A DNA stretch of 64,000 nt from Octopus vulgaris (GCA_951406725.2 OX597818.1:115258001-115322000); one strand, 5' to 3'; shown: positions 3,615-64,000, counted from the first letter of the stretch. Numbers and translations: made by a program. The notes: generated from the sequence alone by a model not told the origin.

Positions 3615-4126
3615 ATCATCTATCCTCATCTTGTTGCTAACACAACGTTTCGGCTTATATACCCTCCAGCCTTCATCAGGTGCCTTGAGGAAATTTCGAA
3701 CCTGGGTTCTCCTTCCTAAGGTAGTTTCAATGTTGCTGTTGTTGTTGTTATTATTATTATTATTATCATTATTATTATTATTATTATTATTATTATTATT
3801 ATTATTATTATTATTATTATTATTATTATCATCATCATTATTATATGCCCGCGGGCATATGGCGTAGTGGTTAAGATCGCGGGCTACTAACCCCAAGATT
3901 CCGCGTTCGATTCCAAGCAGTGACCTGAATAATAATAATAATAATAATGATGACGATAACATTGAAGAAATACCTTAGGAATGGGAACCTAGGTTCGAAA
4001 TTTCCCCAAGACACCTGATGAAGGCTGGAGGGTATATCAGCCGAAACGTTGTGTTAACAACAAACTAGATGAGGACAAATATCTGTAAATAATGTACGTA
4101 ATTCCACATCTCTTAAATATAGAACT
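3615..4126 (+). mobile_element. tRNA-headed SINE-like element with hammerhead tail and 5' inverted duplication
   Basis: tRNA-like head ~3851-3927 (A box TGGCGTAGTGG, B box GTTCGATTCC), then (AAT)n and a tail at 3957-4126. 3622-3843 is an inverted copy of the tail plus (ATT)n. Confidence 0.7.
4011..4054 (+). ncRNA. Minimal hammerhead-like motif
   Basis: ACAC-CTGATGA-A-GGCTG(10-nt loop)CAGCC-GAAA-CG-TT-GTGT; inverted copy on the minus strand at 3641-3682. Confidence 0.65.
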
Positions 4127-4216
4127 GTAAGCACTTTCTTTTCAATAATCGAAAATTTCCAAAAACACAAACAAAAAAGAAAACGTTTGTGTGGCCGAAT
4201 GTGCGTTTGTACTCAC

Positions 4217-4429
4217 TGTTATGCCCGAGATCGCTCCTGACATCTTTCACCGCTTTTTGTATCTGTTCATCGCTGACAACATCCAGTTGTATTACTTTGC
4301 TCTTCGAGGACATCTTTTCTCGCAACATGTTCGCGCCAGTTCCATCCGCAAAAAGACAACAAGCATACACAGAAAAGCCTTTCTGATCCAATTTCATGGC
4401 CAGTTCATGGCCAAATCCAGTATCACAAC
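4217..4429 (-). CDS. SDR9C-like dehydrogenase, coding exon 2 (remaining exons apparently left of the window)
   Basis: Acceptor ttctattatag|GT. Encodes (G)CDTGFGHELAMKLDQKGFSVYACCLFADGTGANMLREKMSSKSKVIQLDVVSDEQIQKAVKDVRSDLGHN, with the TGxxxGxG and LDV motifs of classical SDRs. Donor AACA|gtgagt at 4217/4216. Confidence 0.9.
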
Positions 4430-5424
4430 CTATAATAGAAGTGGGAAGATATTTCTTTATAATGAGGGAATCTCTAGAGATAATAACTCTAAAAGTGATT
4501 TAATAGCACTGCTAACACAGATAAGACACAGTACTGACTTAGAAGCCTTTAAAATACTTGGTTGATATATTATATGATTGTAAAACGAAGGGGCGGGGAA
4601 AGACTTAGGCCCCCCAAAACCCTTTTTTACAGTTTTTTCGACATAAGCCCCCGTTTTCGGCTACGAGAATCTGCAAAAAAATCGGCAAAAATCGGCATTT
4701 TTAAATTACCACCCCCATTTCCTTCGTTTTTTGGGTTTTTTACTTTTTTCAGAATTGTTTTTTTCAAAAGATGCAAAATAAATATGGAGATTATGATTCT
4801 GAAAAAAATTTCAAAAACTTTTTGTGAAATTTTTTTAAAGATTTTTTTTTTCTAAATAAATGGGAAAATACGGACATTACGACCTTGCGTTTCCCCCTTT
4901 GCGGGGGGTTGCGGTCGAGGAAATAAGTACCAGTTGAACTTTGGGGTCGATGTAAACGACTCCCCCCAAAAACCAGATCTTGTGCCAAAAGATTAGTAAG
5001 AATTATTTAAATTATATCATTATAAGCTAAATATTCTTGATTAGTTGCCCTGAGTTTCACGCTACCAATTATCCAAACAACTGAAAGAAACAAAAACAGA
5101 TACGCACAAATATTCCTAAATATATAAAGATGTGATTAATTATCGAGATTTTATTGGTCTTTCATCCCACGCAAACACACACAGAAAATATTCGAAATGT
5201 ATGTCAGCCATTCAGTTGTCATATGCAGGATATGTGATGCATTTATTTTGTCACATGCACACGCACGAGAAATATAATTATTGAGCTTAATAATTATAAA
5301 ATGAGAAGTAGAATGTTAATTAGCGTCTGACAAAAATTAAGAGTCTCCTCTTTCACCATTTCCTTCCAATCGGATTCTTGTAATTTAATTTAACACACAG
5401 GATTTCAGATGTACTCCGAATATT

Positions 5425-5745
5425 ACTTACTCACTTAAGCCTTTGGATCATAAGCCATCGACGACCTTTCTTCACTGCCCCTCGATTTTGGATTGTCTTA
5501 AGGCATTTCTCTCGCAGGGTCTGTTGATTCTTAATTGTAATTCATACTTTTGCAACTCTTCGTTTTTTCCTAATCAAATCCCATTTTACATATGGAAAGA
5601 AAGGGTTCATATTAGTCAATCCTCAATCTTTTGACCTGTCCAACAAGGGAGGAGTCCCTACAAAGATCTTGTACTCCACTGGCGCAGCTCTCAGGGTCAT
5701 TGAGACACACAAGCCCCAACATCGCGATAAGGACTGGACCTTGCA
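5425..5745 (-). mobile_element. Short non-autonomous RTE-derived element (5' UTR-like part joined to 3' tail)
   Basis: The plus strand shows gcagctctcagggtcattgagacacacaagcccc (RTE 5'-UTR-like, reversed) and a (TAAG)n-like tail at 5425. Confidence 0.35.
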
Positions 5746-61541: not shown

Positions 61542-62103
61542 ACCTATATATGTATATGAGAGGGATGACCACTAAGTGGACATCCATTATGCTAGATTTT
61601 TCGCCCTTATTTAAGTTTATATATATATATACTCTTTTACTCTTTTACTTGTTTCAGTCATTTGACTGCGGCCATGCTGGAGCACCGCCTTTAGTCGAGC
61701 AAATCGACCCCGGGACTTATTCTTTGTAAGCCCAGTACTTATTCTATCGGTCTCTTTTGCCGAACCGCTAGGTGACGGGGACGTAAACACACCAGCATCT
61801 GTTGTCAAGCAATGCTAGGGGGACAAACACAAACACACAAACACACAAACACACACACACATACACATATATATATATATATACATATATACGACAGGCT
61901 TCTTTCAGTTTCCATCTACCAAATCCACTCACAAGGCATTGGTCGGCCCGGGGCTATAGCAGAAGATACTTGCCCAAGATGCCACGCAGTGGGACTGAAC
62001 CCGGACCCATGTGGTTGGTTAGCAAGCTACTTACCACACAGCCACTCCTATATATATATATATAGGCGCAGGAGTGGCTGTCTGGTAAGTAGCTTGCTTA
62101 CTG

Positions 62104-63200
62104 CTACCAAGTTGTCGCGTTGTTTTTCGTCGTGGTGAAAGTCACGTCGTACGTGAAAAATTGAACATTTGAAGCATGACCACATGTAAAGCATTTGTTT
62201 TTTGGGGTGTTTAGTGAAGTCCGTTGTCCGTATGGTTAATATTTTTTCGAACAAGAGTCTCCACTGGGTTTCAGACATTTGTTTGCCATTTGTTGCCAGT
62301 GGTCTCACTTTTTAGTGAGAATTGTGTGTGTTTTCGGGAGGTGTGTCCTTCCGAAAATTTATGATTTTATGTGACTGTGTGCACTTCGTGGATTTTACCA
62401 ATTGGAGTACAACCAAAATTTTACCATTTGGAGTACAACCAGGAATTTTGTGCTGCAAGGAATTTGTAACTGTACTACAAAGTTGAATTTTGTTGTCATT
62501 TGAACTGTCTTCGTTCTTTTTCTCTTGTCTGTCTTTCTGCTCTTTTTGTGTTTGCATTAGAGACTTTTATTTGAACATTTTTGATTTTGTTGTGGACTTT
62601 TATATTTTAGTTTATATTATTAATGGCAACCAAATGTAAGAAAGCCCTAGAGTGGCGAATTGTGGCCTCCAAGGAGTGGTTAAAAAACTATGATGAGAGA
62701 ACGGTGTTGTTGCGGACCTATTGCAAGGACCGCGGCACCATTTGTGTATTCCCTCAGAGGGAAATTGAAGAAGAGTTGGCGGGATTTGTGCCAACTTATA
62801 GCTTCATCCGCAGGGGTGCAAAGTACACAACGGTGTGCGTGCTTTTCGACACCCCTACGGAAGCTCAGAAATTTGCGAGCCAACATATAGATGGGAGGAA
62901 GATTTTTGTTTCTCCCCACTTACGGTGGGCGTAAATTGACAAGAGCCTGGGTGTGTGGGCTACCGCCCGGTATAGAGGCTGAATGGATAGAAGATTCTAC
63001 CGTCGAGGCCTTGGTGGGGGGCCTGCCAGGCTCTTGAATGTAAATATACTGCCTGCGGTCGATTGGGTCGGGTCAAAAGCAATTTTGACCATATGGGCCC
63101 AATCGACTGAAGATTTGGTTTTTCCAGATTTCTTGACAATGGCTGGTTCCAGGCACCCGGTGATCGTTGAGGGACGCCTCACAAGTGTGCCTGTGTCTGG
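62104..63200 (+). mobile_element. L1/Tx1-like LINE 5' UTR + frameshifted ORF1, truncated by a SINE
   Basis: ATG at 62623 (MATKCKK...TVCVLFDTPTEAQKF), continuing in shifted frames ...RAWVCGLPPGIEAEW...FPDFLTMAGSRHPVIVEGR, which resembles ORF1 just before its zinc knuckle; preceded by a T-rich leader. Confidence 0.55.
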
Positions 63201-63563
63201 AATCATACATATATATACATATATACGACGGGCTTCTTTCAGTTTCCGTCTACCAAATCCACTCACAAGGCTTTGGTCGGCCCGAGGCTATAGTAGAAGA
63301 CACTTGCCCAAGATGCCACGCAGTGGGACTGAACCCGGAACCATGTGGTTGGTAAGCAAGCTACTTACCACACAGCCACTCCTGCGCGTATATATATATA
63401 TATATATATATATATATATATTAGGTGAAAAAAGATGAAAGATCTATACAAATCAAGTTTTTATATATAAAAGATGGAGGTGGAAATAACACAGAAGTAG
63501 GTCTAAGACATTTCAATTTAAGAGGGAATTTAATAAAAAAAATTATCAAATTATATAAATAAG

Positions 63564-63596
63564 ATATTACCGGTTTCGATGTATCTTATCAAAAAT
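63564..63596 (-). ncRNA. Degenerate minimal hammerhead-like motif
   Basis: TTGATAA-GAT-AC-ATC-GAAA-CCGG-TA with palindromic ACCGGT, in an element starting at a (TA)n tract (63421). Confidence 0.35.
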
Positions 63597-64000
63597 TTAT
63601 AAAAATTTGAATCAAAAGCAGTTTATCTTCCGTCAGAGCGTCAAGAACATGTCCGGAGATTTTTCTTTGAAGTCTTCTTTAAATATAGTTTGGTGTAGAG
63701 TTCAGAGTGTTAGAGAGTGAGAGAAGGGGTGTCTCTTGTCTAAAACAAATCTGTGTGTGTTCCTTCCAAGGGAGTGGCTAAAAAGTATTTATTGAACAAA
63801 GACTATCTTTAGACAATAGAGACCCTTTCTCTCATTTTCCAACACTTTGAACTCAACGATCTAGTCTTTTTCATTCGCAAAATGACCCCACTTTAATTTT
63901 GCTCAAATTGCTTTCAATTTTTGGTGTAGCGATGCAACTCTGAGTTTTGATTACGACCAACCAATTACTTTATCTCGTAAATTAAGGAATCTGATGTTAT

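Follow-up and report, generated by a model that had tools for sequence, protein, structure and literature searches.

A 64,000-nucleotide stretch of the Octopus vulgaris genome (GCA_951406725.2 OX597818.1:115258001-115322000, hereafter the window) carries a swarm of small repeats with minimal type I hammerhead ribozyme motifs, and the question it raises is to which elements these ribozymes belong. A first-pass annotation of the window had described nine non-coding families and read them as retrozyme-like, non-autonomous elements mobilised by Penelope-like elements (PLEs). In this study, we found it probable that the hammerheads belong to the PLEs themselves, with six of the named families (F1, F2, F3, F4, F5, and F9; Table 1) being ends of coding PLEs and four permuted units without an open reading frame (ORF), namely F6, F7, F8, and F10, being retrozyme-like passengers likely to travel on the same enzymes by the cycle proposed below.

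The window was scanned with our own type I hammerhead descriptor in a strict and a relaxed form, and 60 block-wise dinucleotide shuffles of the window were used as control. There were 6 strict and 9 relaxed matches against shuffle means of 0.0 and 0.03, a frequency far above the controls, and the motifs proposed in the first-pass annotation were thus real. The descriptor matched seven of the 11 sites listed there. Among the remaining ones, the site at 58392 has U at core position 6, as do 17 of the 18 incidental copies of its family (F3b), that at 30353-30440 (F5) has a helix I of just 2 bp, and those at 32253 (F6) and 63564 (F9) are decayed copies of families in which the majority of members show the hammerhead fold. 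With F5 and F3b as deviants in these respects, the CUGANGA and GAAA boxes (or compensated variants), helices I-III and the NUH cleavage site were present. Each of the nine families recurred throughout the genome, with 40-58 matches per family when 40 candidates were scored per search out of 777-2071. The family samples given below are the 19-30 top matches to the window copy unless they are said to be in genome order. Covariation, judged from compensated core pairs and helix II swaps within and across families, was also found: the compensated U3-A8 core pair was present in 24/25 copies of F2, 14/25 of F9, and 13/25 of F5, and F6 copies showed compensatory changes in the arms of helix II, from which it follows that the fold is under selection. 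Helix III, described earlier as self-complementary in most families, is not palindromic in F4 (nor in F10). A 2017 paper is said to describe PLE hammerhead variants that cleave as dimers. When the window was scanned with Rfam, the best 150 of its 257 matches did not include a hammerhead, and microRNA-like matches fell on microsatellites.

Exact-motif counts in the genome, which are lower bounds, were 6,966 for F3, 2,007 for the F1 head, and 1,328 for F4, while the ORF-less units were rarer than these ends of coding families (87, 70, and 34 for F7, F8, and F10, respectively); the reversed pattern gave 0 matches for each of these motifs. In 40 evenly spaced 10-kb stretches (400 kb) the descriptor found 20 matches, compared with 0-1 in ten shuffles, with 7 of them in one canonical retrozyme array and 13 outside it. 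Extrapolated from this sample, the 2.8-Gb genome would hold roughly 100,000 motifs. The window is about 3x richer in them than the genome average, and the phenomenon is genome-wide.

Judged from their sequence, F1, F2, F3, F4, F5, and F9 are short pseudo long terminal repeat (pLTR) or 3' ends of protein-coding PLEs, one of Poseidon type (F1), four of Neptune type (F2, F3, F5, and F9), and one of Hydra type (F4). All six are continuous upstream with PLE coding sequence and are therefore ends of autonomous elements, not separate non-autonomous families; their earlier description as non-coding was wrong. A reverse transcriptase (RT) with a C-terminal GIY-YIG endonuclease (EN) lies upstream of the hammerhead on the same strand, mainly as its endonuclease half in F5 and F9. 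For F1, RT and GIY-YIG peptides followed by head and tail were found in loci L264-L293 (L numbers are those of the fetched loci). Pfam assigned the F1 parent peptide to RVT_1 (E 5.8e-8) and the F5 parent peptide to GIY-YIG (E 3.2e-6), and gave no match for 5/8 parent peptides. A Neptune-type endonuclease frame lies upstream of F2 in 4/25 loci, as well as in L231, and upstream of F9 in 2/25. In L467 an upstream F3 pLTR directly precedes a 5' untranslated region (UTR) and a complete RT-EN frame, and in L385 the end of such a frame is joined via a long CA-rich UTR to the F3 hammerhead. ORF and hammerhead stand together in one locus for F4 (Hydra-type ORF; L478 and L488) and in 5/8 checked loci for F5. 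It should be noted that long copies are rare and that three of the six ORF links came from a second search starting further upstream. The hallmarks of PLEs were found in these families, that is, a pLTR tandem (the upstream pLTR of L467), 5' inversions and two 3' ends or a tail.

The clade labels were derived, with no tree, from the motifs given in the available text of Craig et al. (2021, PMC8557442). Its Neptune motifs were recognized in F2, F3, F5, and F9, although the linker was not seen in F9 and, on motifs alone, Nematis stays possible. The parent of F4 and the large head-to-head PLE of the window are of the same, Hydra-type clade, with a CxCX5C linker, RWK-like and DKT motifs and no CCHH. 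By the same kind of motif reading F1 belongs to Penelope/Poseidon, the L286 peptide having no Zn-finger linker before the endonuclease. The arms of the large PLE are 99-100% complementary over 4.5 kb, which indicates a recent insertion, and the same break is present in both of its frames, for which Pfam gave no significant family. The hammerhead of this PLE had been overlooked in the first-pass annotation, as had F10 and the second arm of F8. Three further observations were made. Just before the core box of the F2 family (e.g., in L053), helix I coincides with a pyrimidine tract that has CAG at its end and is a possible splice acceptor; the same coincidence has been reported for the Penelope intron end (PMC4209133). 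The 3' UTR of the F5 parent contains internal tandem repeats of ~270 nt (L127 and L113). Finally, an abundant (TA)n-ending repeat with frequent fold-backs, unrelated to F4 and with neither a hammerhead nor an ORF assigned to it, lies upstream of an F4 copy (L405-L434).

The families share an insertion signature. The 3' end is fixed in each of them, at one or two positions that lie 45-310 nt beyond the GAAA box. The adjacency to microsatellites noticed earlier corresponds to (TA)n enrichment at these ends in eight of ten families: (TA)5 was present in F2 (23/25), F3 (24/25), F4 (23/25), F5 (21/25), F6 (12/25), F8 (15/25), F9 (20/25), and F10 (19/19), far above the background of 0.07-0.15, the exceptions being F1 (1/30) and F7 (0/25). 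The head-to-head, PLE-like geometry was likewise borne out, an inverted family segment lying upstream in F1 (15/30), F4 (14/25), F7 (19/25), F8 (17/25), and F9 (10/25); it was rare in F2 (3/25), F3 (1/25), and F6 (0/25). In F5 the inverted hammerhead was found in 8/25 loci, the raw inversion count being inflated by the self-complementary helix II. The targets of F1 and F7 are mixed AT-rich DNA with duplications of 10-16 nt, and duplications of at least 10 nt flank the whole head-to-head pair in 11/15 loci of F1 (mismatched control, 5/210) and 8/18 of F7 (mismatched control, 4/306). Since they surround the whole pair, the pair is one insertion event. A word from downstream of the cut brought up 64 incidental copies, of which 53 continue across the cut and 2 have their end within 3 nt of it. 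Copies that begin at the cut were therefore not found as a class, and, given that copies pass through the site, the template was uncut or rejoined.

The four ORF-less families differ in form. In F6, F7, F8, and F10 the sequence past the 3' end leads back to the sequence before the same hammerhead, with unit lengths of 296, 352, 330-351, and 566 nt, respectively, and the longest ATG frame on the circle is 25-34 aa. Each is thus a non-coding unit of a few hundred nucleotides with one type I hammerhead, as retrozymes are. Copies longer than one unit amount to 9/25 in F7, 11/25 in F8, and 13/19 in F10. Most copies are monomers, head-to-tail dimers were found for F6, F7, and F10 (L162, L294, and L148) together with one F10 trimer, and for F8 only copies of 1.0-1.6 units were seen. 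The circular fold scored z values of -5.7 (F7), -3.1 (F8), and -4.8 (F10) relative to shuffles. No PLE ORF was found within 1.5 kb upstream in the 33, 29, 28, and 25 loci matched for the four families. F7 and F8 share 54 nt at 81% identity, yet of the two only F8 has (TA)n as its target. These four are likely retrozyme-like passengers that use the same PLE enzymes, so that the earlier view of PLE-mobilised, retrozyme-like elements probably holds for F6, F7, and F8, plus F10, and fails for the six coding ends. As a separate observation, a canonical type I array with a period of 353-359 nt (L305:3076-4550 plus a mirror arm; G000:C1:20000001-20010000) has five units in one orientation and two in the opposite one, i.e., with an inversion, and a circular fold z of -4.3; it is a textbook retrozyme array.

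Many copies also end at a hard 5' limit, or wall. A genome-order sample of 30 F1 copies, selected by the head motif, contained 26 with their end no more than ~12 nt from the head (16 with an inverted arm and 10 without an adjacent inversion) and 4 that continue into the ORF; beyond the head, the ends of ORF-linked F1 copies are evenly spread over 336-1827 nt. In genome-order samples of 20, 19 copies of F3 end at or inside -102 (positions counted from the GAAA box) and 18 of F4 at or inside -34, with the remainder far upstream in both. In F5, ~10/24 copies end at -31 to -35. We are inclined to regard the hard walls of F1, F3, and F4 as RNA starts, and the walls of these three coding families are possibly new to the literature.

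In the cycle that we propose, a PLE protein would nick the target. As observed, the Neptune- and Hydra-type families have (TA)n as target, and F1 and F7 have mixed AT-rich DNA, in which a duplication of 10-16 nt arises. Priming of reverse transcription would take place within the RNA, at either of two fixed sites that lie 45-310 nt beyond the ribozyme. The ends are observed, and the internal priming is suggested by in vitro work on another PLE, the purified Poseidon of the anole: there, priming is internal, at two sites that follow the hammerhead, uncut RNA is the preferred template, and RNA beyond the start is required (PMC11167929). Copying, which as observed proceeds through the uncut ribozyme, would usually stop at or before the likely RNA 5' end in the pLTR, where the wall is seen; Penelope transcripts start within the pLTR, where the promoter lies (PMC2377424). 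The cDNA would then often fold back to give the observed head-to-head pair, presumably by self-priming, as fold-back palindromes of rotifer PLEs have been interpreted (PMC3846280). Internal priming near the 5' pLTR followed by copying to the RNA start would thus yield short copies with fixed 3' ends, a 5' wall and often a fold-back. Most short copies would be dead ends because the RNA downstream of the priming site is missing. The ORF-less units would persist in that the sequence past the priming site leads to their own head and copies of more than one unit may seed new ones, these over-unit copies likely deriving from ribozyme-processed circles or multimers. Since a permuted loop keeps the RNA downstream of the priming site in copies longer than one unit, it would explain the form of the ORF-less families.

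Several points weigh against this reading. F6 is a weak case, with 2/25 copies over unit length, a circular fold z of -0.9 and no inverted copies. The fetched loci yielded no autonomous partner with sequence in common with F6, F7, F8, or F10, the genome contains just 1 exact F7 dimer, F2 and F9 had no wall in the copies sampled, and the samples of top matches are biased. The priming site published for the anole PLE is not homologous to its target, whereas the ends observed here often lie at internal TA-rich words. In addition, three RNA runs mapped to an F1 parent copy (11,388, 8,680, and 8,083 reads, equal in both directions) showed neither start or end peaks nor cleavage ends, and the read ends that the first-pass annotation had proposed to look for at the predicted cut did not appear in them. 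Loose read ends at the F1 head match genomic fold-backs. This pattern fits read-through of embedded copies, and small RNAs may be lost in library preparation.

With regard to the walls, it might be supposed that the short copies of coding families amplify themselves from solo-pLTR transcripts, F1 being an RNA polymerase III (Pol III) short interspersed element (SINE) with a tRNA-like head and a Poseidon tail. We hold this to be possible, though rather unlikely. The F1 wall lies at a head with tRNA-like box A and box B segments, which hints at a SINE-like RNA; most of the F1 copies sampled start there, more than a third of these (10/26) with no adjacent inversion, and in the genome 364 exact fold-backs at the head stand against 404 read-throughs. 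In the one F1 copy checked there is no T4 run, and at one F3 site short and long copies differ (p 1.5e-4; the long set was selected). Nevertheless, short and ORF-linked F1 copies share their polymorphisms, with 1/15 variable sites at p<0.05, a CpG, and in this small sample no diagnostic short-copy subfamily appeared such as a separately amplifying tRNA-derived SINE should have. ARAGORN gave no tRNA anywhere in the window, the head included, and Rfam did not recognize one in a sister copy. In F3 and F4 there are walls but no tRNA-like head; the RNA runs show no start peak on F1; and the anole PLE needs RNA beyond the priming site (PMC11167929), which solo copies do not contain.

Alternatively, the walls could be RT stops or fold-back hotspots caused by RNA or cDNA hairpins instead of RNA starts, which we consider unlikely. 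A natural hairpin does span the F1 wall (RNA -11.7, cDNA -5.9 kcal/mol), and the walls of F4 and F5 lie just outside helix I. However, F1 copies, non-inverted ones included, end in the loop and the 5' arm of that hairpin and not at its 3' foot, and F3 stops at -102 with almost no inversions. RNA starts stay the preferred reading of the hard walls.

The possibility that F6, F7, F8, and F10 are pLTR fragments of coding PLEs with unsampled long copies appears quite improbable. Only 19-33 loci per family were available, and the first sets of F3, F4, and F5 had also contained long copies in 0/25 cases; but past their 3' ends the four families lead straight back to the sequence that precedes the same hammerhead, so that a loop of 296-566 nt without an ORF is closed. 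The view of the first-pass annotation, in which all nine families are independent non-autonomous hammerhead retroelements, is very improbable: most copies are indeed non-coding, 100-350 nt long and piled at fixed 5' walls, but the loci in which ORF and hammerhead occur together refute it for six families, and the polymorphisms that short F1 copies have in common with ORF-linked ones also speak against it. Lastly, MITE-like (miniature inverted-repeat) DNA transposons or chance fold-backs, which several window copies resemble as short inverted repeats within (TA)n, are refuted, in line with the retroelement reading of the annotation, by variable arm lengths and centres, many single-armed copies and 10-16-nt duplications in place of the constant terminal inverted repeats and short fixed target duplications of MITEs, by the junction of six families with RT genes, and by the near absence of the motifs from shuffles.

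Much of this agrees with known systems. As early as 2014, truncated PLEs were named as the source of minimal hammerheads that stand alone or on opposite strands, among them the U3-A8 form (Cervera and de la Pena, PMC4209133), and the octopus motifs share with those metazoan PLE hammerheads the short helix I, the extra base after A9, the palindromic helix III, the U3-A8 variant, the predominance of single motifs and the opposite-strand pairs 100-700 bp apart. They differ in that the parents could be traced family by family, in the unpaired base that flanks helix II on either side in several families, and in one U6 and one 2-bp helix I. The EN+ clades Poseidon, Neptune, and Hydra, as far as described in the available text of PMC8557442, have in common with the octopus elements a GIY-YIG at the C-terminus, extensive 5' truncation, a neighbouring copy in inverted orientation, an optional tail and, in clades with a Zn-finger linker, a (TA)n bias; by comparison with that text, octopus tails measure 35-95 nt and not 30-40, 3' UTRs reach 0.7-2.6 kb and a Poseidon family has a tRNA-like pLTR segment. 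As with anole Poseidon PAc (Frangieh et al. 2024, PMC11167929), there are two fixed ends downstream of the hammerhead, an uncut RNA template and no reads ending at the cut, whereas many octopus ends coincide with TA-rich words that match the target, and a counterpart of the hard 5' walls is absent from the accessible account of that element.

Animal non-LTR (non-long terminal repeat) retrozymes, described by Cervera and de la Pena (2020, PMC7229834) and Li et al. (2026, bioRxiv 10.64898/2026.07.22.740005), are likewise non-coding, with units a few hundred bases long that have one type I hammerhead each, head-to-tail permutation, a well-paired circular fold and a proposed PLE origin and mobilisation; tandem retrozymes appear in the former, and retrozymes as proposed PLE derivatives with proposed PLE drivers in the latter. 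Unlike them, F6, F7, F8, and F10 have minimal hammerheads and occur mostly as dispersed copies of 0.5-1.5 units rather than arrays, and the fold-backs and tails of PLEs are directly evident in them, together with either target duplications or insertion in (TA)n. The nearest parallel to the F1 head is TRIMp3 (Helenus, Ajax, and Cassandra; Kojima 2024, PMC10886601), which resembles tRNA-derived SINEs in that a small-RNA-like box A/B segment stands where a short retroelement begins, at its 5' side, or in its terminal repeat; the box A/B-like segment of F1 lies instead in the pLTR of a coding PLE, ahead of the hammerhead, and any Pol III role of this segment is putative. The main text of a 2026 octopus repeat annotation, in its available part, does not mention hammerheads or ribozymes (PMC13282606), and the squid genome paper, similarly consulted, gives 235 Rfam hammerheads (PMC6962438). 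Our literature search found no report of a PLE with a tRNA-like pLTR head or of hammerheads in cephalopod PLE ends; Repbase, Dfam and supplements, which lay outside it, may list these families.

The swarm is therefore mainly an annotation of known biology with a few testable new details. A more far-reaching picture, which we offer as speculative and doubtful, would have a Poseidon PLE with a tRNA-derived Pol III promoter in its pLTR spawning a ~330-nt SINE-like hammerhead RNA, the walls of several families mapping PLE transcription starts from DNA alone, and the four ORF-less circles being retrozymes with the insertion signatures of their PLE drivers, perhaps different drivers for the related F7 and F8 with their different targets. 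Short PLE ends would be left unclassified by repeat pipelines. The ORF-less units, with PLE duplications, tails, and fold-backs, offer direct genomic support for the proposal that PLE enzymes move animal retrozymes and are suited to the existing in vitro assay. In the same way, the walls and the tRNA-like head provide exact positions at which PLE RNA starts and the purpose of the ribozyme can be tested, and the U6 core of F3b is a natural variant of assay interest. The features of the window are collected in Table 1.

Table 1. Hammerhead-bearing and related features of the window (family labels refer to these copies; F1 covers 3615-4130 and F2 6958-7158).
Feature	Position	Strand	Description
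F1 sense copy	3847-4130	+	tRNA-like head, (TAA)n linker, hammerhead, fixed 3' end; 3' UTR/pLTR of Poseidon-type PLE
F1 head boxes	3860-3870 (box A-like), 3905-3914 (box B-like)	+	labels are our own reading of the sequence
F1 sense hammerhead	4010-4055	+	predicted cut after 4050
F1 fold-back arm	3615-3759	-	hammerhead 3639-3684; pair turns at short palindrome 3847-3856
F2 sense copy	7071-7158	+	U3-A8 hammerhead 7069-7106; (TA)n at end; 3' end of Neptune-type PLE
F2 fold-back arm	6958-7045	-	
F3 copy	29875-30011	-	hammerhead 29964-29998, C at position 4; within (TA)n; pLTR of Neptune-type PLE
F4 head-to-head pair	30067-30264	30067-30147 -, 30149-30264 +	3' end of Hydra-type PLE
F5 head-to-head pair	30267-30450	30267-30399 -, 30397-30450 +	U3-A8/U3-G8 core, 2-bp helix I; 3' end of Neptune-type PLE
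F6	32186-32362	-	part of ORF-less ~296-nt permuted unit; old family, weakest case
F10	36617-37686	sense 37023-37686 (1.17 units), fold-back arm 36617-37013	ORF-less 566-nt permuted unit in (TA)n
F10 hammerheads	36811-36874 and 37339-37402		
F5-related second fold-back pair	39124-39357	both	truncated within hammerhead
Large head-to-head Hydra-type PLE	39367-49491	both	broken RT-GIY-YIG ORFs 41806-44617 (-) and 44595-46887 (+)
Large PLE hammerhead	49011-49120; mirror 39566-39672		long helix II insert
F7	55090-55311	+	0.63 of ORF-less 352-nt permuted unit; hammerhead 55105-55149
F3b	58392-58427	-	F3-related hammerhead; U at core position 6 as family trait
F8 head-to-head pair	60122-60733	60122-60290 -, 60322-60733 + (over one unit)	ORF-less permuted unit, 330-351 nt
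F9 copy	63427-63796	-	U3-A8 hammerhead 63564-63596; (TA)n at end; 3' end of Neptune-like PLE

Some minor features of the window were also observed. In the F3b family (58392-58427 and 15096-15112), position 7 is free, besides the U for A at core position 6. A diverged relative of F8 with ~71% identity lies in (TA)n at 14672-14905 (-) and is truncated within the hammerhead. At 29617-29785 there is a further (TA)n-flanked repeat, with a relative in L261, that has a CUGANGA-like box followed by an incomplete second box and is possibly a further ribozyme variant. Two more pairs of core boxes with weak helices, at 33090-33130 and 10210-10245 (-), are probably decayed hammerheads of other families. 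Different PLE ends are stacked side by side in one (TA)n tract at 29875-30450, as well as in L068, L058, and L015, because each insertion recreates the target.

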